This document shows positions 1 through 20,000 of a stretch of DNA of 20,000 bases, one piece after another (within the stretch, counting starts at the first letter, position 1; every line of letters begins with the position of its first letter). The stretch lies in the IMG/VR virus record IMGVR_UViG_3300020577_013366; one strand, 5' to 3'. The stretch comes from an uncultured virus (IMG/VR IMGVR_UViG_3300020577_013366). Taxonomy: Duplodnaviria > Heunggongvirae > Uroviricota > Caudoviricetes. The position numbers were made by a program, and so were the translations under genes. The notes beneath the pieces are model-generated. The model saw nothing but the letters and a program-made list of their open reading frames with translations, searched no databases and was not told the DNA's origin.

Positions 1-456
1 GCCCCTTTCTGCGACACCTGTGGCGCCAAGCTGCTCGGGTCGCTCACGGACTACGGAGCCCGCTGCGAGCTGGAGCACTTCGAGGACTACCATCCCCGCC
101 ACTGCGAAGAGTTGGTGCTCGATCTCGACAAGCCGCCCGCCCCGGGAGACCGGATCGCATGGGCGCTCATCGAGCGCTGCCCAGGCTGGACGCTGGTGAA
201 GGAGCAGACCGGCGCCTACGCCCTGCGCATGGGCCACGACGGTGGGCAGTGGGTGTGCGTCCCCGAGGACCGCCCCGAGCGCGATGGGAGGATCTGGTGG
301 GTCGAGCCGATCGCGTTGTGGATCTGGAGCGCGCGGCGCGAGAAGTACGACCTCGTCACGGTGATCGCCACCGGCCTCACCCGCGAGGAGTGCACCGCCG
401 AGCGCCTGCGCGAGCTGGCCAACCTGTTCGAGTTCACGGAGGCGAGCCGGTCATGA
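1..456 (+). CDS. Hypothetical phage protein, 5' truncated; CxxC motif (FCDTCG)
   Basis: Frame of ORF 112..456 is open back to base 1 (APFCDTCGAKLLGSLTDYGARCELEHF...). High GC3. Stop TGA overlaps the next ATG (ATGA 453-456). Confidence 0.75.
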   Translation, partial: APFCDTCGAKLLGSLTDYGARCELEHFEDYHPRHCEELVLDLDKPPAPGDRIAWALIERCPGWTLVKEQTGAYALRMGHDGGQWVCVPEDRPERDGRIWWVEPIALWIWSARREKYDLVTVIATGLTREECTAERLRELANLFEFTEASRS

Positions 457-902
457 GCCGCCACGAGGAACGCATCCGGCAGCGCCGGGCGAAGCGCCTC
501 GCCGCGGGCGGGCGCCCCGTCGAGCTCGACTGCGAGACGGCCACCGGCACGCCGAAGTGCTGGGGCTGCGCCATCTACGGGCCGCGCAAGTGCACCGAGC
601 AGACGCTGAGCGACGACGTGCACTTGTCCTGCGAGGCCGAGGGCCATCGCCTCGCCGCGGAGCGCGGCGGCCAGCCCTGTGACGACTGCGCCTTCCGCCC
701 CCGCTCGCCCGAGGCGAAGCAGGAGGGCCTGCTCGCCCGGGTCGTCCGGCAGGAGACGCCGTTCTACTGCCACAAGGGCATGCCGCTGGACGGCAAGGGC
801 AAGATGCCAGCTGAGGGCGACTACTTCCCGCGCGACCACAAGCTCTACCCGATCTGCGCCGGCTGGGCTCGCGCGCAGGCTGCTCGAAAGGACAGGCCAT
901 GA
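453..902 (+). CDS. Cys-rich putative Zn-binding phage protein (PCxxCxFR...FYCH...CAGW; resembles DUF6283-type proteins)
   Basis: ATG at 453 is coupled to the upstream stop. The 3' part of ORF 159..902 reads MSRHEERIRQ...CWGC...PCDDCAFRP...PFYCHKG...ICAGW. Family name is from memory of the motif only. Confidence 0.7.
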   Translation: MSRHEERIRQRRAKRLAAGGRPVELDCETATGTPKCWGCAIYGPRKCTEQTLSDDVHLSCEAEGHRLAAERGGQPCDDCAFRPRSPEAKQEGLLARVVRQETPFYCHKGMPLDGKGKMPAEGDYFPRDHKLYPICAGWARAQAARKDRP

Positions 903-1198
903 CCGCCGAAGAAAAAGACGCCGCGATCGAACGCATCGCCGACATCGGGGCCGACCCGCCTCTGCCGCACAACGCACGATGCGCGCTGCTGTCGCTGGTG
1001 GACGAGTTGCTGGCCTATGCCGAGGTCCGCCTGGCTCGCTCCGACGAGCGGCGCCCGCTCTCCCGCATGGAGCGCAACTACACACGGGCTGCGCAGGCCA
1101 ACGCCTGGCGAGGCCTGACCGACGACCTCGTGGAGTACAACGTCGATCCGACCTACCTGTGGATCGAAGCCTTCGAGGTGGTGCTGGCCGATGGGTGA
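899..1198 (+). CDS. Hypothetical protein (99 aa)
   Basis: ATGA overlap at 899-902, protein-like composition, stop overlaps the helicase start. Confidence 0.7.
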   Translation: MTAEEKDAAIERIADIGADPPLPHNARCALLSLVDELLAYAEVRLARSDERRPLSRMERNYTRAAQANAWRGLTDDLVEYNVDPTYLWIEAFEVVLADG

Positions 1199-2759
1199 GC
1201 GCGACCTCAAAGACCTGCACCTCGCGGGCGACCTCGACATGGAGGGTGACATCGAGCCGATGCCGCTCCCCGAGATGTCGCTGGCCGAGGCCGAGGACAT
1301 GTACTTGGCGATCTGCTGCTCGACCCCGAAGTACGCCGACCACAGCCGCGTCCAGGACGCCCACCTGTCGGACCGGGGCAAGATCATCTTGAACGTGATC
1401 CGCGCGGTGCAGGCGCAAGGCTGGTCGCAGGTCACGATCGAGCAGCTCGAGGGCCCGATCGCGGCTGCCACCATCGAGCGCTTCTGGTCGGCGAAGCCCG
1501 CCCGGCTCCGCCCCAAGGTGATTCCCGAGCTCGACCTCGGGCATATCCCCAAGCGCCTCCGGCACTTCGACCCCAACACCAGCATCGGCTTCGCCGAGGA
1601 CGTGCTCCTCGCGGCCTTCGAGAAGGCGAAGTACATCGCCATCCACCTGAAGGCGGCGAAGGTGGCCGAGCAGGACGGGCCGGCGGCGGCGCGGGCGTTC
1701 CTCGCCGAGCGCGAGGCCCGGCTGGCATCGCTCACCCAGGGCGTGCGGTTCACCCACATCAGCGATGTCGCGGCGCAGGTCACCAGCGAGATGCGCCAGC
1801 GGTTCGAGCAGCCGAACACGGACCCGAGCAAGGTCCAGATCGCCACGAACTTCCCGGAGATCGACCGGGTCTGCGGCAACTTCGAGCCCGAGAACGGGAC
1901 GACCATCGCCGGCTGGAACCAGCACGGCAAGAGCACCTTCGCGTTTCAGCTCCTCGGGCAGATGGCGGTGCAGGGCATCCGGGTCGCGGCGATCTCGGCC
2001 GAGGACAAGATGACGCTGACGACCAAGCGCCAGCTCATCTGGCTGCTGTCGGACCTGCGGACGGCGAGGCGGGTGAGCACGAACCAGCCGGTCGGCACCG
2101 GGGCCCCAGACGGCTACGTGTTGCAGGACGTGGTGGAGCTGGAGGCGATCGCCCGCCGCGTCGTGGACAAGATGCCGCTGTTCATGTCGCACTTGCCCGG
2201 ATGCACGATCGAGCAGGCCGACGCGGCGATCGTTGAGGCGGCGCGGTCCGGTGCGCGCGTGGTGCTGTTCGACTACCTGTCGGCCATCGCCGAGCCGCCC
2301 AAGGTCGAGACGATGAAGTGGCGCAACTACTGCCACAAGCGCTTGATGGCGACGGGCAAGAGCAACGGCATCCACACCATCATCTGCGCGCAGCTGAAGC
2401 GTCCGAGCGGCGGCGGCAAGGACGGCACCGGCGCCCGCGACGAGACGAAGCCGCCCACCGCCTACGACATCGAGCTGTGCCCCCAGGCCGAGCAGGGGAG
2501 CGAGAACGTGATGCTGGTGCACCGACCCCAGCGAAACAACTACACGACCGTCGCCGGCCGCCGAGTGCCCTTGTCAGTCGAACAGGCCAGCATCATCGTC
2601 ACGAAAGCCAAAGCGGGCGGCACCGGCACCATCGATCTCGGGTGGTGCAACGCGCGGCACTGCTACGACCGTAGACCGCAGGACCAGCGGCAGGGCAACC
2701 TGGGAGACGGCGGGCCTCGCCCACCAGGAAAGGACGTGCTCGATGAACACCCATTCTGA
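1191..2759 (+). CDS. dnaB: DnaB-like (SF4) replicative DNA helicase
   Basis: SF4 motifs in order: IATNFPEIDRVCG, Walker A AGWNQHGKST, H1a ISAED, Walker B VVLFDYL, H3 ICAQLKR, H4 IELCPQAEQGSENVMLVHR, and IIVTKAKAGGTG (cf. IAKQRNGPTG). Confidence 0.88.
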   Translation: MGERDLKDLHLAGDLDMEGDIEPMPLPEMSLAEAEDMYLAICCSTPKYADHSRVQDAHLSDRGKIILNVIRAVQAQGWSQVTIEQLEGPIAAATIERFWSAKPARLRPKVIPELDLGHIPKRLRHFDPNTSIGFAEDVLLAAFEKAKYIAIHLKAAKVAEQDGPAAARAFLAEREARLASLTQGVRFTHISDVAAQVTSEMRQRFEQPNTDPSKVQIATNFPEIDRVCGNFEPENGTTIAGWNQHGKSTFAFQLLGQMAVQGIRVAAISAEDKMTLTTKRQLIWLLSDLRTARRVSTNQPVGTGAPDGYVLQDVVELEAIARRVVDKMPLFMSHLPGCTIEQADAAIVEAARSGARVVLFDYLSAIAEPPKVETMKWRNYCHKRLMATGKSNGIHTIICAQLKRPSGGGKDGTGARDETKPPTAYDIELCPQAEQGSENVMLVHRPQRNNYTTVAGRRVPLSVEQASIIVTKAKAGGTGTIDLGWCNARHCYDRRPQDQRQGNLGDGGPRPPGKDVLDEHPF

Positions 2760-3135
2760 CGATGCTCATCTCCCGGCCCCCGGGGGATTCTTCAACCCCG
2801 CTGGCCACATCGCCGCGGATGTCTGCTGGTCGGCGCCCGCCAGTGTGCCGGTGAAGCACGCGCAGCGGTTCGCGTGGCGCCTCCGGAGGGCGTTGAGGGG
2901 GCAGATCGACGATGCGACCTGCGCCTGCATCCCCGCCTACACCGGCGGCCGCGGGCGCCCGGTCGCGGTGGACGGGGAGCTCCGCACCCCCGCCTGCTTC
3001 GGCAGCCGCGGCGAGCCGTGGGCGCAGCCGCTCGGCCTCAGCCGGATGTGCGTGCCCGACTTCGAGGCCGAGATCACCGTCATCGATCCGTCGCCGCGCC
3101 GCGGCTTCGCCATCCTCGTGGAGCTCTATTCATGA
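2743..3135 (+). CDS. Hypothetical protein (130 aa)
   Basis: Overlaps the helicase end by 17 nt, ends in an ATGA overlap with alkB, and fills the operon gap with high GC3. Confidence 0.6.
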   Translation: MNTHSDDAHLPAPGGFFNPAGHIAADVCWSAPASVPVKHAQRFAWRLRRALRGQIDDATCACIPAYTGGRGRPVAVDGELRTPACFGSRGEPWAQPLGLSRMCVPDFEAEITVIDPSPRRGFAILVELYS

Positions 3136-3899
3136 TGCGCATCGCCTACAGCGTGCCCGAGCGCGGGTTCTACGTGCTTCGCGGGTGCCACAGCCGCGCC
3201 GACATCGACCTGCTCGTGGAGCAGGTTCGGGACCTGAAGAGCACGCATCCGTTCGGGCAGCCGACGATGCGCGACGGCTCGCCGCTGTCGGTCCGCGTGA
3301 CCAGCTGGGGACCGTGGGGCTGGTGGGGCGACCAGCTCGGCATCCGCTACGTCAACCAGCACCAGAAGAACAAGCAGGCGTGGCCGCGCCTCCCCGCCGG
3401 CTGGACCCGCTACCCCATGGCCTTCCTCTACCTCGCCGCCTGGGACGCCCAGCAGCGGGTGAAGGGCTGGACGCCAGCCTCGTGGAACCTCCCGGATGGC
3501 CCCGCGACCTGGCTCGATCAGGTGGACACCGGCCTCGTGAACTACTACGCGCCCGACGCGGTGCTCGGCTGGCACGTGGACAAGACCGAGACCGACCTGC
3601 GCTCGCCGATCCTCACGATGTCGCTCGGGGCTTCCGCGCGCTTCGAGATCAAGCTGGACGGCGAGACGCACTCGATGATCCTTCACAGCGGCGATGGGTG
3701 CGTGATGGCGGGGCACTCCCGCAACGCAGAGCACCGCATCGTCAAGCTGCTCACGCCCGCCGAGGTGCAGGCGGAACAGCAGGCCGACCTGTTCACCGGC
3801 GCGCCGCCGGCGGACGACATCTACAACCCCATCACCAACGGCGCGCGCCTGTCGATCACCTGGCGCCGCACGGGCCTCCCGCCCGCGAAAGCTCCATGA
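3132..3899 (+). CDS. alkB: AlkB-family 2-oxoglutarate/Fe(II)-dependent dioxygenase (nucleic-acid demethylase/hydroxylase)
   Basis: ATG 3132 (ATGA overlap). Motifs LVNYY, WHVD (HxD), PILTMSLG, LHSGD, AEHRI (distal His) and RLSITWR (RxxxxxR). The N-terminal GWWGDQLGIRY resembles the AlkB nucleotide-recognition lid. Confidence 0.92.
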   Translation: MMRIAYSVPERGFYVLRGCHSRADIDLLVEQVRDLKSTHPFGQPTMRDGSPLSVRVTSWGPWGWWGDQLGIRYVNQHQKNKQAWPRLPAGWTRYPMAFLYLAAWDAQQRVKGWTPASWNLPDGPATWLDQVDTGLVNYYAPDAVLGWHVDKTETDLRSPILTMSLGASARFEIKLDGETHSMILHSGDGCVMAGHSRNAEHRIVKLLTPAEVQAEQQADLFTGAPPADDIYNPITNGARLSITWRRTGLPPAKAP

Positions 3900-4558
3900 C
3901 CACCAACTACTACGGCTCCGACGCGGTCGCCACCGCCGCCCGCATCGGATTGACCACCGCCACCAGCATCCCCGACCTGCTCGATCTCGGCATCGAGCGC
4001 GGGTTCACCCTCTGGCCCGAGTGGGGGCCGACCTTCACCGAGCTCGACAAGCGGATCGAGAACCGGCCGAGCGCGCCGCCGAAGAACCTCGTGGGCAAGC
4101 GGGTCGCCTTCCACAACGGCACCTACTTGGGCGGGCGCAAGGCCATCGGCGCCGCGATCGCCGGCATCTACAACATGCTTCGGACGGCGCAGACCGCCGG
4201 CTGGAATTTCGCCGGCGAGCTGCCCAGCCGCGGTGAGCATGGCCGGCGCGGGGCTGACCGGCGCGGGCGCAACGATGTCCACCTCGGCAGCGGCACTCTG
4301 GCCAAGGGCGACAAGCGGGTCGCCTTCGACGGGAGCAAGATCCCGCTCGCCGCGATCACCTTCACCGCCATCATCACCGGCTTCGAGCTGCCGACCGACA
4401 GCCCGGCGCACCCCTGGCAGTTCGCCAGCGACCCGGCCGACCCCGACTCGTTCTCCTACGGCTGGCACGTTGCCGAGGTCATCGTCCTCGCCACCCCGAT
4501 CCCCTGCTCCGGCCTGCAGGGCTTCTGGCCGCTCAAGACCGCCAAGGTGGGAAGATGA
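3896..4558 (+). CDS. ASCH-domain protein (PUA-like nucleic-acid/modified-base binding)
   Basis: ATG 3896 (ATGA overlap), 3' part of ORF 2912..4558. ASCH signature FTLWPEW...DKRIENR...RVAFHNG and C-terminal PWQF...YGWHVAEV..LATPIPCSGLQGFW. Confidence 0.8.
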   Translation: MTTNYYGSDAVATAARIGLTTATSIPDLLDLGIERGFTLWPEWGPTFTELDKRIENRPSAPPKNLVGKRVAFHNGTYLGGRKAIGAAIAGIYNMLRTAQTAGWNFAGELPSRGEHGRRGADRRGRNDVHLGSGTLAKGDKRVAFDGSKIPLAAITFTAIITGFELPTDSPAHPWQFASDPADPDSFSYGWHVAEVIVLATPIPCSGLQGFWPLKTAKVGR

Positions 4559-5064
4559 ACGCTCCGATCGCCCGCGTGCGCCGGCTGCCGGTGCTGCCGA
4601 AGATCGCCCCGGAGCTCTGTGGCCCCTGCGGCGGCAAGTGCTGCAAGGCCGCCCCCGGCCTCACCGTCCCCGAGGACTGGGAGAGCATGGAGGCACTCGA
4701 GGCCGCCCTGCGCGGCGGCGACTGGGGCCTCCGGACGTGGTGGGGTGACCCGCTCTCGCGCGTGCTCGAGCGCCGCGGACGACGGCATCCCGTCCCGCGG
4801 CTCGTCGAGCGGGTGCTGATCCCGCGGCCGCGAGTGCTGGGCGAGTTTGAACGGGATTTCGGAACCGAGGGCCAGTGCGTCAACCTGCGCGCCACCGGCT
4901 GCACTCTCGGCGACCGCAAGCCGTTCCAGTGCCGCGAGTTGGTGCCGCGAGCACCCGAGGAGGCATGTCGTCTCGCCCCCGAGCACTGGGATGAGGAGAT
5001 CGCCCTCCGCTGGCGCAGCCGCGCCGGGCTGGTGGAGGCGATCGCCAAGCGGGTGTTCGGATGA
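4555..5064 (+). CDS. CxxCxxCC (YkgJ/UPF0153-like) Fe-S/Zn cysteine-cluster protein
   Basis: CGPCGGKCC near the N-terminus and CVNL..TGCTL..RKPFQCR...C at the C-terminus. ATGA coupled at both ends. Confidence 0.8.
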   Translation: MNAPIARVRRLPVLPKIAPELCGPCGGKCCKAAPGLTVPEDWESMEALEAALRGGDWGLRTWWGDPLSRVLERRGRRHPVPRLVERVLIPRPRVLGEFERDFGTEGQCVNLRATGCTLGDRKPFQCRELVPRAPEEACRLAPEHWDEEIALRWRSRAGLVEAIAKRVFG

Positions 5065-5609
5065 GCCAGGCGCACCTCTTCGGCGAGCCACCTGCGGACG
5101 ACGGCTTCGCCACCATCCTGATCGACTCCCCGTGGGAGGAGAAGGGCGGGGGCGGGCGTGGGGCGCAGAACCACTACCATGTGATGCCGCTCCACGACAT
5201 CATCGCGACCATCTACCGATGCCCGCTCTGGCGGCCGGCGAGGAACGCCCACCTGTGGAGCTGGGTCACCGACAACTTCCTCGAGGACGGCCTGTTCCTC
5301 ATGAAGGCGCTCGGCTTCCGGTACATCCGGACCTTTGCGTGGGTGAAGAACTCGATCGGGATCGGGCATTACGGGCGGGGCCAGCACGAGCTGATGCTGT
5401 TCGGGGTCCGCGGCAAGCTCCCGCCGCTACGTGCCGGGTCGAGCGTGATCACCGGCGACAAGCGCGAGCACAGCCGCAAGCCCGAGGAGAGCTACGAGCG
5501 CATCGAGCACACCTCGCCGGGGCCACGCCTGGAGATCTTCGCCAGGTCGAACCGGCCGGGCTGGACGTCGTGGGGGAACGACCCCAACCTGTCCGCCGAG
5601 CCAGCATGA
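5061..5609 (+). CDS. MT-A70 (METTL3/Ime4-like) N6-adenine methyltransferase
   Basis: FATILIDSPW (motif IV, canonical DPPW), HY..M, LWSWVT, LGFRY..FAWVK, GIGHYGRGQHE, HSRKP, RLEIFARSNRPGWTSWGN. Confidence 0.92.
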   Translation: MSQAHLFGEPPADDGFATILIDSPWEEKGGGGRGAQNHYHVMPLHDIIATIYRCPLWRPARNAHLWSWVTDNFLEDGLFLMKALGFRYIRTFAWVKNSIGIGHYGRGQHELMLFGVRGKLPPLRAGSSVITGDKREHSRKPEESYERIEHTSPGPRLEIFARSNRPGWTSWGNDPNLSAEPA

Positions 5610-6112
5610 CCCGCAGCATCCTCCGCCGCGCCACCTTCATCGCCCCCCACTACCTCCAGAGTGAGGCCTCCGGGCGTCCGCTCCCGCGCACCCCCAGCGC
5701 CGTGCTCGCGCAGGCCTCGAAGGCGCAGGCGCAGATCACCGAGACGATCGTCGTGGTCCGCAAGGCCGTCGCCGACGTCGCCGGCGCGACCCTCCCCGGC
5801 AGCGACGCCGAGCTCGAGGGCGTGGTGTTCGATGCGGACATGTTGGCCGACGCCCGCCAGAACTACGAGCGCCCCCGGGGCCACCTGACCAGCCGGTTGA
5901 CGGCCTCGGCACGCGAGCGCCGGGTCAGCGACGTCGGGGCGGTGGTCGGCATCCGGCTCGCCCGCCGGCCCTTCGCCACCGTCCAGGTCCGGATCACCGA
6001 GGTGGTCAAGCCCGGCCGCGAGGTCGCCGTGGCCGTGCTGAACGGCCCCGACACCGGCCTCCGCCTCACCGCGGAGCTCGGCCTGGCCTTCCCCTGGGAC
6101 GTGCTGGTGTAG
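5606..6112 (+). CDS. Hypothetical protein (168 aa)
   Basis: ATG 5606 overlaps the MT-A70 stop (ATGA). 3' part of ORF 4847..6112 with strongly GC3-biased codons. Confidence 0.7.
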   Translation: MTRSILRRATFIAPHYLQSEASGRPLPRTPSAVLAQASKAQAQITETIVVVRKAVADVAGATLPGSDAELEGVVFDADMLADARQNYERPRGHLTSRLTASARERRVSDVGAVVGIRLARRPFATVQVRITEVVKPGREVAVAVLNGPDTGLRLTAELGLAFPWDVLV

Positions 6113-6133
6113 ACGCCGCCGCGCGCGCGGGTC

Positions 6134-6139
6134 TACCCT
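6134..6139 (+). promoter_or_regulatory. Putative -10 box (TACCCT) 6 nt before ATG 6146; leaderless promoter
   Basis: TAnnnT-N6-ATG with no Shine-Dalgarno. The same geometry recurs before five other genes in the window. Confidence 0.5.
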
Positions 6140-6145
6140 CCGACC

Positions 6146-6763
6146 ATGCTGCAGCCCCTGCCCGCCTGGGTCGCCTCCTACCGCCCCTCCCCCGATCCGG
6201 GGGAGTTCTACTACCACTACCTCGTCCGGGTCCTGGGCGAGCTGGACAGGAAGCTCGCGGGCGCGCTCTATGCAGGCGGGTCGCTCACCTCCAGGTTCGG
6301 CGCCGCCGAGCTGGCGGTCCCCGGCTACCGACGCAAGGACATTCCGCACCCGGAGATGTGGCCGAACTTCGTCCCGGTCCTGGCGATGACGATGCTGGTG
6401 CGGCAGGCGATGGTGCTTCAGGGGTTCGGCCCGCTTCGGGTGGTCGCCACCTACCGGCCGATCGGCGGCGCCGCGAAGTCGCTCCACAAGGTCAACCGGG
6501 CGATCGACCTGTCGCCGCTGAAGAAGACGGAGGCGGCCTGCAGAGCTCTCGTTCGAGCGGCGACCTGGGTCTACCAGCAGCACGAGCACCTGCAGGTCGG
6601 CGTCGGCACCTACGGCCCCTACACCGACCGCTCGACGTTGATCCACATCGACGTGGCCGGGCGGAAGAGCCGGAAGTCGTGGCGCCAGATCAAGGGCGTC
6701 AGCGTCGGCTCGGCGGTGCGGGGGCAGCCGGCGGTCCACCTGGAGACTCCGGCTGGTGGATGA
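6146..6763 (+). CDS. Peptidase M15 (Zn D-Ala-D-Ala/LAS-type) putative endolysin
   Basis: VVATYR (cf. SGYR), SLHKVNRAIDL (SxHxxxxAxD), GVGTY and LIHIDV (HxD) motifs of M15A-type peptidases. Confidence 0.8.
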   Translation: MLQPLPAWVASYRPSPDPGEFYYHYLVRVLGELDRKLAGALYAGGSLTSRFGAAELAVPGYRRKDIPHPEMWPNFVPVLAMTMLVRQAMVLQGFGPLRVVATYRPIGGAAKSLHKVNRAIDLSPLKKTEAACRALVRAATWVYQQHEHLQVGVGTYGPYTDRSTLIHIDVAGRKSRKSWRQIKGVSVGSAVRGQPAVHLETPAGG

Positions 6764-6914
6764 TTTCGCCACCGGTCGTGGCGGGGGCACCGGCAGGTAC
6801 CGGCTTCCCGGGGGGACAGGGGTCGGCGAACTTGAGGACCACGAAGCCGACGATGATCACGGCCACGACGATCCAGATCCAGGTACGTCTCGGTTTGGTG
6901 CGCTGCTCAGGCAT
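6699..6914 (-). CDS. Small single-pass membrane protein with Pro-rich tail
   Basis: Basic N-terminus, TM segment WIWIVVAVIIVGFVVL, high GC3 on this strand. The + frame reading DDDHGHDDPDP is its antisense shadow. Overlaps the endolysin 3' end by 65 nt. Confidence 0.55.
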   Translation of the reverse strand: MPEQRTKPRRTWIWIVVAVIIVGFVVLKFADPCPPGKPVPAGAPATTGGEIIHQPESPGGPPAAPAPPSRR

Positions 6915-6941
6915 GATCCTGCGCCGATATCACGCACGAAT

Positions 6942-7289
6942 TTGCCTGTCTACGCGGGGGCTGGAGGCCTCGCATGGATCGAGAGGAACCGCCTCTGGCT
7001 GATTCCGTGGATCTCCGCTTTCATAGCGATGGTGATCGAAGTGCTCGCCGCCCTCTTCGCCTCCCGCCCGATGCCGATCGAAGGGCATGCAGCGCTTGCC
7101 GCGTTCTGGGCCTTCGCGGTGGCGCGCGGTACGGCGCGAGTGCAGAGAATGCGCGCTGGCGAGGCGAGGTTGATCGAATACGCGAGGCGCCGCGGTATCC
7201 CGCTCGACGAAGCGCGCGATGAATGGGAGGCCTTCGAGGCATCGGTGGCTCGCACGCAGCTGCCAGCACGGAGGACCCATGGCGATTAA
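6942..7289 (+). CDS. Putative two-TM membrane protein (holin candidate); start uncertain
   Basis: 3' part of ORF 6756..7289 has two hydrophobic stretches (LWLIPWISAFIAMVIEVLAALF; AALAAFWAFAVA) and a charged tail. In-frame TTG at 6942 chosen to avoid the antisense gene. Confidence 0.4.
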   Translation: MPVYAGAGGLAWIERNRLWLIPWISAFIAMVIEVLAALFASRPMPIEGHAALAAFWAFAVARGTARVQRMRAGEARLIEYARRRGIPLDEARDEWEAFEASVARTQLPARRTHGD

Positions 7290-7446
7290 CACCGCGACGA
7301 TGCCGCAGCTTTCGCCGAACGTGTCGATGCTTCCGGCGGCGGTGATACCCCGCACCCGCAGGTGCCCGCCACCCGTTGAGGACGACGTGGATCTACTCGG
7401 GTATGCCCTCCTGCTGCTCTTGTTCCTCGCCGCGGTGTGGCAATGA
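7279..7446 (+). CDS. Small protein with C-terminal TM anchor (55 aa)
   Basis: GGAGG SD just upstream of ATG 7279. C-terminus LLGYALLLLLFLAAVWQ. Confidence 0.5.
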   Translation: MAINTATMPQLSPNVSMLPAAVIPRTRRCPPPVEDDVDLLGYALLLLLFLAAVWQ

Positions 7447-7501
7447 CGTGGGGTCTACGAGAGACAGTTGATCACGATCACAGGCTGGCCATCATGCGCC
7501 C

Positions 7502-8662
7502 ATGATCATCTCCCTGGTGTTTTCCCTCGCATCCCTCACCTCTTCCCCGGCGGCCGGCCACGTTCCCGTCCCGCCGCCCGTGTTCGCCCCGGGCTGCAAC
7601 CCGCCGGCCAACATCTGCGACACGCTCCGCGCCGACTGCCTCGCCGGCGGTGGTGACCCGGAGCGCTGCGAGCTCGTCGCCGACGCCATCTGCCCCGGCA
7701 GCCCGTGCCTGGCGAAGGACGTGGCGATCCGCGACTTCATCGAGCAGGGCCTGGACTTCGGGGCCATGGCCAAGCACATGGCGGCCGGCCTCGAGGGCTG
7801 CTCCTGCAAGCTCGCCTGTACCGACAGCGACGACCTGTCGCTGCAGATGCTGTTCTCGATCTGCCTCGCCTACCCGTCAGCGATCGGCGACGACTGCGAG
7901 GAGCCGAGCGCCGGGCAGTGTGTTGCGCTGCTCACCCTCAGCGAGGACTACTGCGACATCGACGCGTGCGAGTACGTGCAGTGCCAGCGAGACATCATGG
8001 CGCAGGGGGAGGTGTGCGCCGAGCCGCCGTCGAGCTGCGCGAAGCTGGAGGCCTGCGACGCGGCGGAGAACGGCGGCGCAACGGGTGGCCCCGGCGTTCC
8101 CCATGTCCCCGGCCCGGACGACTGGCACGTCCCGCCCCCCTCGCCGGCCTCCTGCCTGCGCCTCGCCGAGGTGTTCGTCACGCCCGTTGGCGACCCTGAG
8201 GATCGGCAGTGGGTGAAGATCGTCAACATCTGCGACGAGGAGATCTCGACGGACCGCGCCCTCGTCCGATGGACGAAGCCGGGGAAGGGCTGGGCGAACA
8301 ATGGGATCCTGCTCGCCGGCATCACCGCGATCGGCCCCGGCCAGTGCGCCATCGTCGGCGGAGGAGACTCGGTGCCCGAGAACTTCATGCCCAACATCGA
8401 CCTCCCGATCTCGTTCACCCCGCCGACGCTCGATGACGGCGCCCGCGAGGTCGCTGGCATCGGGCTGTTCGACTCGCTCGCCCCGTTCGGCACCCTGCCG
8501 TGGGATGCGGTCGCCTATGGGAAGGGGGTGGCGACCTTCCCCGACGCGCACGGGAAGTCCGCTTCGCCGGTGGTCGTGAAGATGAAGGACGGGCACAGCC
8601 TGGTGCGCAACCATGGCGGCTGGCACGACAGCGCAAACCCGTCGCCGTGCTCGACGTTCTAG
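7502..8662 (+). CDS. Secreted Cys-rich protein with C-terminal lamin-tail-like domain (myxobacterial type)
   Basis: Signal peptide MIISLVFSLASLTSSPAA, many Cys in the N-half, Pro/Gly linker, then LRLAEVFVTP.GDPEDRQWVKIVNICDEEI...GIGLF...DAVAYG typical of LTD domains. Confidence 0.75.
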   Translation: MIISLVFSLASLTSSPAAGHVPVPPPVFAPGCNPPANICDTLRADCLAGGGDPERCELVADAICPGSPCLAKDVAIRDFIEQGLDFGAMAKHMAAGLEGCSCKLACTDSDDLSLQMLFSICLAYPSAIGDDCEEPSAGQCVALLTLSEDYCDIDACEYVQCQRDIMAQGEVCAEPPSSCAKLEACDAAENGGATGGPGVPHVPGPDDWHVPPPSPASCLRLAEVFVTPVGDPEDRQWVKIVNICDEEISTDRALVRWTKPGKGWANNGILLAGITAIGPGQCAIVGGGDSVPENFMPNIDLPISFTPPTLDDGAREVAGIGLFDSLAPFGTLPWDAVAYGKGVATFPDAHGKSASPVVVKMKDGHSLVRNHGGWHDSANPSPCSTF

Positions 8663-10239
8663 CGGGAGGCGATGATCACGTCGGTGTATTCGCGCAGGTA
8701 GAACTTGGCGCCCAGCGGGCCGATCGATGCGACAACAGCCTCGTTTAGCTGGATTGAACCCGCAGAGCTGACGCGCACAGCGTATGTGCTCCCGATGGTC
8801 TTGGTAGCCGCGCTGACATTCGTCAGTGACATCGTGGTCAGGCCGTGGCTGCTGCCGCCAGTCGCGTCGTCCTCCATCTTCAGGAACATGGTGCCGGTCG
8901 TGAGCAGGTTGAACTCGCCGGAGATGACCATGTGCCGCGCCGTCTCGGGCAGCACCATCGCATCGTCGCCGACGATCGACCCCCACATATTGTAGGAGGT
9001 GGGGGCAGCGATCGGCAGATCGGCGGTGAAGACGAAGCCGGTCTTGCGCTTCGGGGCGACTCTTGCTCCGACCACGCGCTGCGTGACGAGGCCGGGTATG
9101 TCGATCGCGTGGAAGGCGGCGCCGACGTAGATCAGCGTCGAGCGCTGCCTGGTGAAGGCGCCCCACAGGTTGTCCGTGAAGGTCCCGGTGGACGCGTTGG
9201 GGTTGCCCCGCAGACCCAGCGGGCCGGTGTTGAGCGACGGGCCCGACGACGACATGAGGACGATGCAGTTGCGGGCGCCGGCGGGCACGGTCGAACTGAC
9301 GCCGGGCGTGGTGGTGTCCGAGATGAAGAGCTCCCGCGGCCCGAGCCACGAGTCGTAGCCGGCGGGGTACGGCGGCGGCGCGACGTAGGCGTGCACGAGC
9401 GTGTTGCCGCCCGGGAGACCGCCGCCCTCGTAGTTGCCGGCCGTGACGAGCGCGATGTTCGCGTTGCTCGGGATGTAGAACGGGAGGCCGTTCTCGGGGA
9501 AGGCCCCTGACATGCTGGTCGCCAGCGTCCCCGAGTAGCCGTCCGAGGCGATCTCCCAGCCGCCGCCGGCCACCCCGAAATTCTCCTGGTACGGGGAGAA
9601 GATGCTGGTCTTGTCCTCGTTGCGGTAGACGCCCCTGCGGGGGGTGAGGAGCGCTCGGCAGTGCCAGATGCGGTCCACGTTCAGGACCACGGCTCCGGCG
9701 GCGACGTAGACGTAGGCGAGCGGGATGCGGCCGGCGGTGCCGGCGGGGAACTTGGGGTTGGCGCCCTCGGTCCCCTTGGTGATGTAGACGGTGGGCGTGC
9801 AGATCTTCAGCGGGGAGAGCGGCGTCGCCACCGGAGCTCCGATCGCCGGGTCGTAGACGTCGAGGATGTCGGGCGGCCCGTCCACGTGGCCGGCGACGAT
9901 CTCGATGGCGTCCCAGCGCGGGTTGGCGCCGCCGGCGTCGAGCGTGACGGTGATCCCGGCGCTGCCGACCTCGATCCACCGGTGCTGCGAGTCGGGGTCG
10001 GGGATCGTCGCGTCGTACTGCACGCCGAGCCCGGTGCCGACCTGGACGTTCATCGTCCCCGCGACGACGGCGGGGATCAGGCCGGAGATGACGCCCGACA
10101 TGCGGACGGCATCGCCGAGGAGGATCCACCGGAGGATCTCCGGGGCGAGACGGCCGATCCAGGCGGACTGGTCGTTCAGGCCATCGCTGGTCATGCGCTG
10201 GCGGGGCTGGAACTCGTAGTGGGTGTTGTCGGCGGCCAC
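8659..10239 (-). CDS. Phage tail/tail-fibre-associated virion protein (526 aa)
   Basis: N-terminal GVISGL...MNVQVGTG...VTLDAGGANPRWDAI...KGTEGANP...IPLAYVYV pattern seen in phage minor tail/fibre attachment domains. Beta-rich G/T/S composition, downstream of baseplate genes. Confidence 0.65.
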   Translation of the reverse strand: MAADNTHYEFQPRQRMTSDGLNDQSAWIGRLAPEILRWILLGDAVRMSGVISGLIPAVVAGTMNVQVGTGLGVQYDATIPDPDSQHRWIEVGSAGITVTLDAGGANPRWDAIEIVAGHVDGPPDILDVYDPAIGAPVATPLSPLKICTPTVYITKGTEGANPKFPAGTAGRIPLAYVYVAAGAVVLNVDRIWHCRALLTPRRGVYRNEDKTSIFSPYQENFGVAGGGWEIASDGYSGTLATSMSGAFPENGLPFYIPSNANIALVTAGNYEGGGLPGGNTLVHAYVAPPPYPAGYDSWLGPRELFISDTTTPGVSSTVPAGARNCIVLMSSSGPSLNTGPLGLRGNPNASTGTFTDNLWGAFTRQRSTLIYVGAAFHAIDIPGLVTQRVVGARVAPKRKTGFVFTADLPIAAPTSYNMWGSIVGDDAMVLPETARHMVISGEFNLLTTGTMFLKMEDDATGGSSHGLTTMSLTNVSAATKTIGSTYAVRVSSAGSIQLNEAVVASIGPLGAKFYLREYTDVIIASR

Positions 10240-18556: not shown

Positions 18557-18943
18557 ATGAACAACGTCACCCCCATCCGGCCGCGGCAGCCGATGACCCC
18601 AGCTCGGGCCATCGCGCTCGCGCTCGCGGCCGCCTCCGAGTTCCTGCGCCGCACGCAGGTGCTCGCCAAGAAGTATCCCGTGGGCGACATCGCGGTCGCC
18701 GTGATCCTCGCCGATAGCAGCGAGGATGAGGCGCTGGTGGGCCGCATGGCAGGCAAGGCCGCGCACGCGGTCTGGCGGCTGCTCGGGATCGCCGAGGACG
18801 GCTCCGATGTCCCGCTTCCGCCCTCCGACGAGAGCGTGGAGGAGGCCTGCGCCGGAGCTCTGAGCCGCGGGGCCGATGATGCTGGCGGTGAGTTTGCGGC
18901 CGCGCTTCGACGCGTCGCCGACCTGCTCGGGGTTCCGCGGTGA
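18557..18943 (+). CDS. Hypothetical protein (128 aa, MNNVTPIRP...)
   Basis: ATG 18557 within ORF 18467..18943. The stop forms a GTGA overlap with the methyltransferase start. Confidence 0.6.
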   Translation: MNNVTPIRPRQPMTPARAIALALAAASEFLRRTQVLAKKYPVGDIAVAVILADSSEDEALVGRMAGKAAHAVWRLLGIAEDGSDVPLPPSDESVEEACAGALSRGADDAGGEFAAALRRVADLLGVPR

Positions 18944-20000
18944 GCGCTCCGTTCGGCCGTGCGGGCGCCGCTGTCGTGGCCGCGGTGTTCACCGTCCTGC
19001 ACCTGTTCTCAGGGTCAGGTGGTCTCGCCAAGGGCTTCCACGACGCCGGCTTCACCAGCGCCGGCAACATCGACATGGACCCGCGGGCCTGTACCGACCT
19101 GCGCAACCTCTGCGGCACCCCGGCGATCGAGGCGGACATCGGCAAGATGGACCCCGCGGGCCTGCGCGCGCTGGTGCCCGAGTGCCCGGACGTAGCCGCC
19201 TCCAGTTCGCCGTGCGTGGGCTTCTCGGGCTGCTTGCCCGAGGTAACCAGCAAGACCGCGAAGTATCAGGAGTTCAACTCGCTGGCGCTGCACGGGGTCT
19301 GGCTGCTCCTGGAGGCCTGGAAGGGCAACCGGACGGGCCGCAAGGTCCCCGGGATGATCGTGTTTGAGAACGTCCCGCGCATCATGACGCGCGGGCGCAA
19401 GCTCCTCGAGCACCTGATCGGCCTCCTCCACGCCGAGGGCTACGCGGTGGACATGCGGACGCACGACTGCGGCGAGCTCGGCCGCGGGGTCGCGCAGAAG
19501 CGCCGCCGGTTCCTACTGGTCGCGCGCCACATGCCGACCGTGCAGGACTTCCTCCGCAAGCCGCCCGCCTACTCGCCGCTGGCGATCCGCGAGGTGCTGT
19601 GGCAGCTGGCGCCGCCACGCCCGGGCGGCCCCGACCATATGCACCGGCTGCCCTCGCTGAGCGCCAAGAACTGGCTCCGGCTCGCGTGCATCCGCGCCGG
19701 CGGCGACTGGCGCGACCTGCCCGCCGAGGTCTGGATCTACCACTGCGAGAGCGTCGACCTCGAGGCCGTCACCGGCATCCGCTGGAACCACTGCGTGGGG
19801 CGCCACGACGGCAAGCTCGGCGTGCTCGACTGGGAGCGGCCGAGCAAGACGATCATCGGCAAGGCGCGGGTCTGCAACACCTGGAACGCCTGCGCCGACC
19901 CGAGGGTCGACTGGCCGGCGACCACCCACGGCGGGCGGCCCGACTGCTACGGCATGACCGACGAGCGGCGCCCGAGCGGCACCGTGCGCGGCGAGCAGAC
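18940..20000 (+). CDS. DNA (cytosine-5)-methyltransferase (Dcm-like), 3' truncated by the window; not in the ORF track
   Basis: Translated manually from GTG 18940 and open to the end: motif I LHLFSGSGG, IV SSPCVGFS (catalytic PC), VI FENVPR, VIII AQKRRRF. Confidence 0.92.
   Translation, partial: MSAPFGRAGAAVVAAVFTVLHLFSGSGGLAKGFHDAGFTSAGNIDMDPRACTDLRNLCGTPAIEADIGKMDPAGLRALVPECPDVAASSSPCVGFSGCLPEVTSKTAKYQEFNSLALHGVWLLLEAWKGNRTGRKVPGMIVFENVPRIMTRGRKLLEHLIGLLHAEGYAVDMRTHDCGELGRGVAQKRRRFLLVARHMPTVQDFLRKPPAYSPLAIREVLWQLAPPRPGGPDHMHRLPSLSAKNWLRLACIRAGGDWRDLPAEVWIYHCESVDLEAVTGIRWNHCVGRHDGKLGVLDWERPSKTIIGKARVCNTWNACADPRVDWPATTHGGRPDCYGMTDERRPSGTVRGEQ

Follow-up and report, generated by a model that had tools for sequence, protein, structure and literature searches.

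Several described systems bring together enzymes of the kinds considered here. The eukaryotic N6-methyladenine (m6A) set comprises METTL3-METTL14, YTH and ALKBH5/FTO. In humans, according to the part of the source available to us, the helicase ASCC3 makes single-stranded DNA for ALKBH3, TRIP4 and ALKBH3 exclude each other when they bind ASCC3, and loss of TRIP4 leaves alkylation sensitivity unchanged (PMC10076317). In bacteria, ASCH domains are fused to N6-adenine methylases or share operons with them, a computational observation found in the accessible portion of PMC4738411. A signature of four residues, S7/K21/E24/R26, has been described for the TRIP4-like ASCH clade, and EOLA1 and YqfB are N4-acetylcytidine (ac4C) deacetylases, as given in an excerpt of a preprint (bioRxiv 10.64898/2026.08.01.741249). 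Here we analyze a locus at which an AlkB-type dioxygenase, an ASCH protein, a cysteine-rich protein and an MT-A70 methylase are encoded by consecutive genes. It lies in a 20,000-nucleotide stretch (the window) of the uncultured virus IMGVR_UViG_3300020577_013366, a member of Caudoviricetes in the IMG/VR database.

All four genes are on the plus strand and occupy positions 3132-5609. The first, at 3132-3899, encodes an AlkB-type Fe(II)/2-oxoglutarate dioxygenase of 255 residues (P0001), assigned through the Pfam family 2OG-FeII_Oxy_2. It is followed by an ASCH-fold (PUA-like), TRIP4/EOLA1-like protein of 220 residues (P0002, 3896-4558), assigned from its predicted structure, by an eight-cysteine, YkgJ/CxxCxxCC-like putative metal-binding protein of 169 residues (P0003, 4555-5064), assigned from its cysteine motif, and by a minimal MT-A70 family methyltransferase of 182 residues (P0004, 5061-5609), assigned through Pfam MT-A70 and the PHROG family phrog_359. 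The GC content at third codon positions is 0.94, 0.94, 0.88 and 0.93, respectively, in a window of 70% GC, and we therefore regard all four open reading frames (ORFs) as coding. An earlier note, made from the sequence alone, had described four consecutive genes joined by ATGA stop/start overlaps, and both the coordinates and every junction proved exact. The overlaps are real but not special to the four, as they also join the gene before AlkB and the gene after MT-A70: ATGA overlaps occur at five successive junctions, from the gene at 2743-3135 through the gene at 5606-6112, and link six genes. Coupling is a trait of the operon as a whole and does not set the four genes apart as a unit.

Each of the four genes belongs to a known kind, and their arrangement is lineage-specific. 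The explanation we favour, with moderate confidence, is a mosaic phage early operon in which this lineage has assembled an orphan methylase serving anti-restriction, an AlkB acting in repair and a protein of the ASCH fold. Under such an explanation, four accessory genes, all handling base methylation, would have been joined in the early operon of one phage lineage. The MT-A70 protein would act as an orphan type-II-like N6-adenine DNA methylase and, together with a C5-cytosine methylase encoded at 18940, would mark phage DNA and thereby shield it from restriction by the host. AlkB, as a direct-reversal dioxygenase of the E. coli AlkB/ALKBH1 kind, would remove aberrant N-methyl lesions of the 1-methyladenine/3-methylcytosine (1mA/3mC) type from single-stranded DNA behind the helicase. 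Part of this damage could stem from off-target activity of the two methylases that the phage itself encodes; the available part of a preprint describes how DNA methylases alkylate off target and how AlkB repairs the result (bioRxiv 10.64898/2026.01.24.701492). The ASCH protein, with an intact T...KxxExR pocket, would bind or hydrolyse a modified base or nucleotide, and the eight-cysteine protein would bind zinc or an iron-sulfur cluster. The targets of the MT-A70, AlkB and ASCH proteins are most likely DNA.

Co-occurrence of the four families in other phages

A profile was built for each family, that of MT-A70 from a 14-sequence alignment, and loci were searched in all six frames: 15 AlkB-family loci (36-63% identity), 17 ASCH-like loci, among which L021/L024/L029 and L023/L025 are near-duplicates, and 80 MT-A70 loci. 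The last were fetched out of at least 570 IMG/VR stretches with MT-A70 relatives and are at most 51% identical to P0004. In their available flanks, the AlkB loci contain no ASCH-like gene (0/15) and no Cys-cluster gene (0/15), and none has a clear MT-A70 gene (0/15). One candidate, an MT-A70 match in L004 (E 2e-4), was rejected, the gene being a Pfam N6_N4 methylase. AlkB and the Cys-cluster family are likewise missing from all 17 ASCH-like loci, one of which has an MT-A70 gene (L018) and another a Pfam CxxCxxCC neighbour (L030). The 80 MT-A70 loci hold no AlkB gene, no member of the Cys-cluster family and two ASCH-like genes (L034 and L052). Recurrent linkage of alkB, ASCH, YkgJ and MT-A70 in IMG/VR neighbourhoods, which the earlier note had raised, was thus not found: the full set is present at 0 of the 15 AlkB, 0 of the 17 ASCH-like and 0 of the 80 MT-A70 loci.

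Whole virus records were also searched with Pfam. Among 49 MT-A70 records, obtained for 50 of the 80 loci that were picked for their longer contigs, none has AlkB, two have ASCH and one has CxxCxxCC, about 50 kb off the methylase. The 17 ASCH-like records yield no AlkB, one MT-A70 and three CxxCxxCC matches: one adjoining the ASCH-like gene (L030), one about 9 kb off, and one about 5 kb off at 14.5 bits. The three AlkB-bearing virus records lack the ASCH-like family (0/3), and two of them encode an N6_N4 methylase, which adjoins AlkB in one (L004); the two matches in the other record are several kb or more away. An MT-A70 Pfam search in the AlkB-bearing records G001 and G002 gave no match, but the controls were equally silent, so that this result shows little. 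Outside the window, no fetched locus or record has more than two of the four families at significant scores. The only Cys-cluster/ASCH pair outside the window is that of L030, where a 318-residue protein (L030:3028-3984) with a significant CxxCxxCC match (32.3 bits) ends 14 nucleotides 5' of the ASCH-like gene.

We read the four genes as a lineage-specific mix because they travel separately in other phages. From these distributions they look like separately mobile accessory genes in a lineage-specific arrangement, not a conserved machine.

The neighbourhood of the ASCH-like genes deserves separate treatment. A DNA methylase is found within 2.5 kb in five of the 17 loci: an MT-A70 in L018, an N6_N4 in L019, a C5 in L022 and L032, and a D12 in L026. 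In L018, one ORF of 93 residues separates the ASCH-like gene from the MT-A70 gene. Methylases of the four searched families are absent in five of the eight near-complete phage records that bear an ASCH-like gene. With partners from four unrelated families, C5 included, and five of eight records lacking a methylase, the ASCH protein is no reader dedicated to a single mark that the phage writes. The link between ASCH and methylases is modest and was published previously. The ASCH-like genes studied here tend to lie near DNA methylases of any family and need none. The counts given here are the first quantitative check of that published claim.

Several observations weigh against the mosaic operon. 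Methylase genes in the ASCH-like records are closer to the ASCH-like gene than expected, with five of nine lying within 2.5 kb against 0.88 under uniform placement (P ~5e-4; P ~0.07 when the two kinds of gene are restricted to a third of the genome). In the record containing L018 (G054, 194,905 bp, of jumbo-phage size), a stretch of about 6.6 kb at ~54.6-61.2 kb takes in the ASCH-like gene, the MT-A70 gene and a CxxCxxCC match that is weak at 14.5 bits. The closest relatives of the AlkB (82%), Cys-cluster (79%) and MT-A70 (73%) proteins all list the same 67,360-bp longest contig, from which the nearest relative seems to keep at least these three genes together. Such a common entry is an indirect sign of co-location and cannot show absence, and the representative library merges sequences above 50% identity. 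The set is therefore probably complete in this sister phage and seems to have been stable over some divergence. Contigs from Logan/ENA with AlkB at 56-74% identity, the most telling range, stand outside the locus counts. As to the proposed repair role, AlkB follows DnaB in only four of the 10 loci with upstream sequence, and the threonine at position 152 of its pocket, described below, suggests that its substrate range may differ from the classical one.

Part of this evidence would suit a working methylation module, in which MT-A70 writes m6A on phage DNA, AlkB proofreads or erases it by taking off misplaced methyl groups or resetting marks, ASCH reads the mark and steers one of the enzymes, and the Cys-cluster protein is a subunit with a structural or DNA-binding part to play. 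Translational coupling joins the genes, three of the four are apparently together in the 67,360-bp relative, ASCH-like genes lie nearer to methylases than uniform placement predicts, and sporadic phage AlkB genes have been proposed to reset methyl marks, in the part of PMC7824862 that was available. However, AlkB is missing from 49 of 49 MT-A70 and 17 of 17 ASCH-like virus records, and ASCH from 47 of the 49 MT-A70 records. The methylase neighbours of ASCH-like genes (MT-A70, N6_N4, D12 and C5) fit poorly with a reader of one mark, and five of the eight near-complete ASCH-bearing phages do without these methylases. The solved relatives of AlkB are of the repair type, and the coupling reaches unrelated flanking genes. 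We consider such a module unlikely. The lack of co-conservation, which the earlier note had itself named as refuting, speaks against a self-contained eraser/reader/writer or hypermodification system. Of its suggestion of a counter-defence module, the ordinary counter-defence reading of an orphan phage methylase survives, and the four-gene unit is not supported.

The four proteins and their relatives

The identification of the first protein as AlkB was confirmed by a Pfam match to 2OG-FeII_Oxy_2 (PF13532; E 6e-29, 102.1 bits against a cut-off of 31.2), which covers profile positions 1-194 of 194. Among solved structures, the AlkB family profile matches E. coli AlkB best (3.6e-28) and ALKBH1 second (1.5e-15); chains of FTO or ALKBH5 are absent among its 21 PDB matches. 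Residues H148, D150, H201, R239 and R245 are invariant across 17 family sequences. The first three align in the E. coli AlkB core with H and D of the HQD motif and with the H of SRLFYH, and the two arginines align with RYNLTFRQ of E. coli AlkB, only in a low-scoring third stretch. The iron-binding H-x-D...H triad and the 2-oxoglutarate-binding R-x5-R are thus present; their E. coli counterparts we take to be H131/D133/H187 and R204/R210. The protein falls far under the cut-offs of the NCBIfam equivalogs (TIGR00568, 85.7 bits against 231; NF011930, 82.1 against 267) and is therefore a member of a divergent subfamily, not an orthologue of chromosomal alkB. Position 152 (window 3585-3587), two residues after the metal-binding aspartate, is Thr or Ser in 17 of 17 family members and Asp in wild-type E. 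coli AlkB chains. In the E. coli enzyme this aspartate contacts the exocyclic amine of 1mA/3mC.

Members of the subfamily are rare and linked to phages, with 16 homologues in a search of 5.8 billion sequences and three loci in IMG/VR. The IMG/VR scan with the single AlkB sequence returned nothing, the loci coming from an alignment-based scan, and in 50,697 cultured-phage records tblastn found nothing at E 1e-3 for the AlkB, ASCH and Cys-cluster proteins. A DnaB-like helicase, 42-44% identical to that of the window, lies upstream of AlkB in L009-L012, and different genes do so in L002/L015, L003, L004, L006 and L013. Directly 3' of AlkB, the genes at L009:1526-2602 and L016:1077-1973 show sub-threshold similarity to the uracil-DNA glycosylase superfamily (20-21 bits against 24.3), which hints at a repair pairing. 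L010, L011 and L012 have identical DnaB and AlkB matches and diverge past AlkB. L012 continues with GidA- and Crp-like genes on bacterial-looking DNA, and L010/L011 with a long ORF that has no assignment; the divergence may mark either a prophage boundary or an assembly chimera. With E. coli AlkB and ALKBH1 as closest solved relatives, a helicase upstream in four loci and a uracil-DNA glycosylase-like gene in L009/L016, the AlkB protein looks like a repair-type enzyme.

The rarity and phage linkage of the subfamily, and the T152 that distinguishes its pocket from that of E. coli AlkB, could also be taken as signs of a counter-defence role. AlkB would then take protective or regulatory methylation off the host's DNA, or off that of the phage to let it evade methylation-dependent (type IV) restriction, and MT-A70 would add a different, protective mark. 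Such a role has been proposed for a few phage AlkB genes, as far as the consulted part of PMC7824862 goes. Against it stand the closest solved relatives, and the place behind the helicase, which fits replication-coupled repair at least equally. PADLOC yields no AlkB match either, though it covers defence and not anti-defence proteins. We hold this role to be very unlikely.

The MT-A70 protein was also correctly named in the earlier note: the Pfam MT-A70 model (PF05063, 172 positions) aligns from 1 to 171 and scores 55.9 bits, above its cut-off of 23.9 (E 6.6e-15), and PHROG assigns it to phrog_359, 'DNA methyltransferase' (3.4e-45). NCBIfam has no model for it. PADLOC type II methyltransferase models match it at 3.5e-36; none of the nine other proteins scanned, those of six neighbouring genes among them, matches any PADLOC model, and the Pfam results contain no nuclease family. 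Restriction enzymes often escape profile detection. Among solved structures, the family profile matches 7f4r ('MT-a70 family protein') at 1.1e-23 and METTL3 at 1e-17. Catalytic motif IV, generically (D/N)PP(W/Y/F), is D22-S23-P24-W25 (DSPW) in the window and DPPW in the consensus of 14 close homologues, with D22, P24 and W25 invariant. Homologues less than 41% identical to P0004 occur in 269 cultured-phage records, and in the three cultured phages examined the neighbours all differ: a restriction endonuclease, a Holliday-junction resolvase and a second methylase. The resolvase lies 3' of the MT-A70 gene in Gordonia phage Malisha. From the PHROG and PADLOC names and the phage setting, P0004 is probably an orphan N6-adenine DNA methylase.

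The ASCH protein has no Pfam match, PF04266 included, and no NCBIfam model. Within its family, three of 51 members match PF04266 weakly, the best at E 0.0076, and a relative at L052:7704-8192 attains 21.6 bits against the cut-off of 21.2. The family profile matches the Zymomonas protein ZmASCH in PDB at E 0.005. An AlphaFold model built from the 51 sequences has a predicted local distance difference test (pLDDT) score of 92.2. Aligned by VIA-align against about 48,000 chains, this model reaches Z 11.5 to mouse CXorf40A/EOLA1 (6kir; 137 residues aligned, root-mean-square deviation 3.0), 11.3 (8alz) and 10.6 to the TRIP4 ASCH domain, 9.3 to ZmASCH (5guq) and 6.6 to YqfB (9kyf); EVE and YTH domains score lower, at Z 5-6. 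Foldseek returns ASCH-domain entries in 14 of its best 15 rows and human EOLA1 in the other, at weak E values of 4e-3 to 6e-2. The ASCH identity given in the earlier note, missed by Pfam, is thus borne out by the predicted structure, and the model confirms an ASCH (PUA-like) fold for P0002.

The family has 604 homologous cluster representatives at E <= 1e-3 and corresponds to phrog_3193, 'unknown function'; an IMG/VR scan with the single ASCH sequence found only one short ASCH-like fragment (L001). The conserved core of the 51 sequences reads TLWPEW...K-x-x-E-N-R. In the pocket, E55 and R57 are invariant, and T38 and K52 are kept in at least 90% of the sequences. The spacing of T38/K52/E55/R57 equals that of S7/K21/E24/R26 in the TRIP4-like clade, as given in the available text on that clade: Ser or Thr and, 14 positions further along, K-x-x-E-x-R. 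The pocket suggests that the ASCH protein may be an enzyme, beyond a mere reader. The protein also carries a helical N-terminal extension of 34 residues. Residues ~105-150 (window 4205-4345) form an insert that is absent in most family members, with an Arg/Gly-rich loop at ~110-130 of low model confidence. Directly 3' of the ASCH-like gene, the genes at L019:4524-5090, L023:4553-5101, L027:4537-5088 and L030:4572-5093 form one conserved family (58-65% identical), two of the four matching Pfam RuvC.

A further possibility is a hypermodification pathway, in which MT-A70 methylates a base, AlkB oxidises the methyl group to a stable hydroxymethyl or formyl form, and elaboration or trimming of the product falls to the ASCH and Cys-cluster proteins. 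Beyond the activity of ASCH enzymes, which can hydrolyse N-acyl bases, YqfB and EOLA1 acting on ac4C (bioRxiv 10.64898/2026.08.01.741249, available part), what speaks for such a pathway is solely that these enzyme classes come together in coupled genes. Co-conservation is lacking, however, and by Pfam, PHROG and NCBIfam the block has no transferase, kinase or glycosylase typical of known clusters. The accessible part of PMC4738411, moreover, calls N6-hydroxymethyl and N6-formyl adenine from AlkB-family enzymes metastable. A pathway of this kind appears barely plausible.

The cysteine-rich protein is the most sparsely represented of the four, with only two homologues found. C22, C25, C29, C30, C108, C116, C126 and C138 are invariant in all three known sequences, and the motif CGPCGGKCC gives a spacing of CxxCxxxCC in all three; the literal CxxCxxCC spacing does not occur. 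It scores 19.1 bits with Pfam CxxCxxCC (PF03692), under the gathering score of 23 bits, and its homologues score 19.4 and 20.5. Because of this score and spacing, we describe it as YkgJ-like, short of membership in the CxxCxxCC family; the earlier assignment to that family was right only loosely. A PDB profile search gave nothing under E 0.3, NCBIfam has no model, and an AlphaFold model from the three sequences shows no confident fold (pLDDT 32.7). As a lead only, an ESM Atlas feature search scores 0.94 against clusters, most of them viral, where PF03692 is present in 16-25% of the members.

The gene block and its setting

The four genes belong to a gap-free block of eight plus-strand genes at 899-6112, with zero intergenic gaps, that is probably co-transcribed. 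The first gene, a small ORF of 99 residues at 899-1198 (third-position GC 0.84), has zero matches in Pfam, PHROG, NCBIfam and PADLOC. It overlaps by eight nucleotides a DnaB-like replicative helicase of 522 residues at 1191-2759 (Pfam DnaB_C 3.2e-16; phrog_19 and phrog_239 ~5e-16). This junction and the next, an overlap of 17 nucleotides, are not of the ATGA type. Between the helicase and AlkB lies a 130-residue protein (g04, 2743-3135, plus strand), which shares an ATGA overlap with AlkB. It has no family match in Pfam, PHROG or NCBIfam, and an ESM Atlas search gave scores of at most 0.81 and nothing usable; weak homologues (33% identity, E ~8e-10) stand immediately 5' of AlkB in L009 and L016. 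The last gene of the ATGA chain, at 5606-6112, overlaps MT-A70 and encodes a protein of 168 residues (third-position GC 0.98) with zero matches in Pfam, PHROG, NCBIfam and PADLOC. Directly after the early block, on the same strand, a 205-residue protein at 6146-6763 shows weak matches to Peptidase_M15_3 (19.8 bits against a cut-off of 23) and to an endolysin PHROG.

A promoter and terminator scan of positions 1-8800 found no promoter; its three terminator-like sites, where 2.4 are expected, all lie on the minus strand. No Rfam family matches the region at gathering scores, and there are no tRNA genes. Elsewhere in the window there are genes for a Baseplate_J protein, for a 'phage/plasmid-like' protein (DUF932/TIGR03299) and, on the plus strand, for the C5-cytosine DNA methyltransferase at 18940-19998 and on past the window end (Pfam DNA_methylase 4.1e-16; phrog_116 6e-29; TIGR00675 8e-12). 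With this gene on the same element, the phage has at least two methylases beside AlkB. The helicase and these genes uphold the helicase operon and the phage setting that the earlier note had recognized, and by its gene content the element is a tailed phage or prophage, with the block at 899-6112 lying in its replication/early module.

A 75,202-bp metagenome contig is the recorded source of the window proteins. Short contigs that match parts of window 800-7000, and of each of the four genes, with zero differing letters occur in sequencing runs of three studies, among them an anaerobic-digester and a riverine one besides the study that has the stretch whole, and the phage therefore occurs in more than one habitat. 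No RNA run is listed among those that contain it. No variant without one of the four genes was seen among the matching sequencing-run contigs. Two joints in the sequencing run X4 were not trusted, as their shorter side measures only 20-22 letters.

Comparison with known systems

If the mosaic operon is the right explanation, the locus is one more phage early operon of its kind, and its value is descriptive. Three of its proteins compare with described families as follows. The methylase resembles orphan phage MT-A70 methylases (phrog_359) in family, size class and place among early or replication genes, and differs from them in consisting of the catalytic domain alone, without a helix-turn-helix or ParB extension, and in its DSPW motif. 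The AlkB protein shares with E. coli AlkB and ALKBH1 the whole 2OG-FeII_Oxy_2 domain, the H-x-D...H triad and R-x5-R, and its lid segment aligns with residues 33-110 of E. coli AlkB chain 3khc. Unlike the E. coli enzyme, it has about 20 extra residues in the lid region and T152 in place of Asp, is phage-borne and is not an orthologue. With these traits it marks out a subfamily of AlkB that is rare, carried by phages and changed at one pocket residue. The cysteine-rich protein has, like YkgJ/CxxCxxCC proteins (PF03692, UPF0153), an N-terminal CxxC...CC cluster and later cysteines, and sub-threshold Pfam scores of 19.1-20.5 bits; it differs in staying under the gathering score and in its CxxCxxxCC spacing.

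As a set, the genes recall the eukaryotic m6A proteins, as the window has an MT-A70 protein, a PUA-like fold and an AlkB-like dioxygenase. By contrast, YTH matches the ASCH model only at Z 5-6, and ALKBH5/FTO are not among the 21 PDB matches of the AlkB profile. A lineage-specific m6A cycle on DNA, in which MT-A70 would write the mark, the T152 AlkB would remove or oxidise it on single strands made by the helicase, and the ASCH protein would recognise or process the base, is quite unlikely. In its favour are the apparent stability of the set in the nearest relative and an ASCH-methylase proximity greater than chance. If true, viruses of prokaryotes would have an equivalent of the writer/eraser/reader logic of eukaryotes and of ASCC-ALKBH3 helicase-coupled dealkylation, and a viral cycle of DNA methylation with an eraser of its own would be known for the first time. 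The likeness to human ASCC3-ALKBH3/TRIP4 is that a helicase, an AlkB homologue and an ASCH-domain protein stand together in the window block. The window helicase, however, is DnaB-type and not Ski2-like, and AlkB and ASCH are unlinked in other phages. We keep this analogy as a resemblance only, given that in the available part of PMC10076317 TRIP4 and ALKBH3 exclude one another and alkylation resistance does not depend on TRIP4.

Like the bacterial ASCH genes found beside adenine methylases, the family of the ASCH protein recurs near DNA methylases. With the TRIP4/EOLA1-like clade the protein shares the PUA-like barrel and S/T...KxxExR at identical spacing; in contrast to that clade it is missed by the Pfam model, carries an N-terminal extension and an insert, and has methylase neighbours of four families, including C5. 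A large unannotated phage family, phrog_3193 with its 604 cluster representatives, is thereby placed in the TRIP4/EOLA1-like ASCH clade with the full pocket signature. Abundant in phages and with a pocket that appears enzyme-like, this family is the most useful lead to emerge from the locus.

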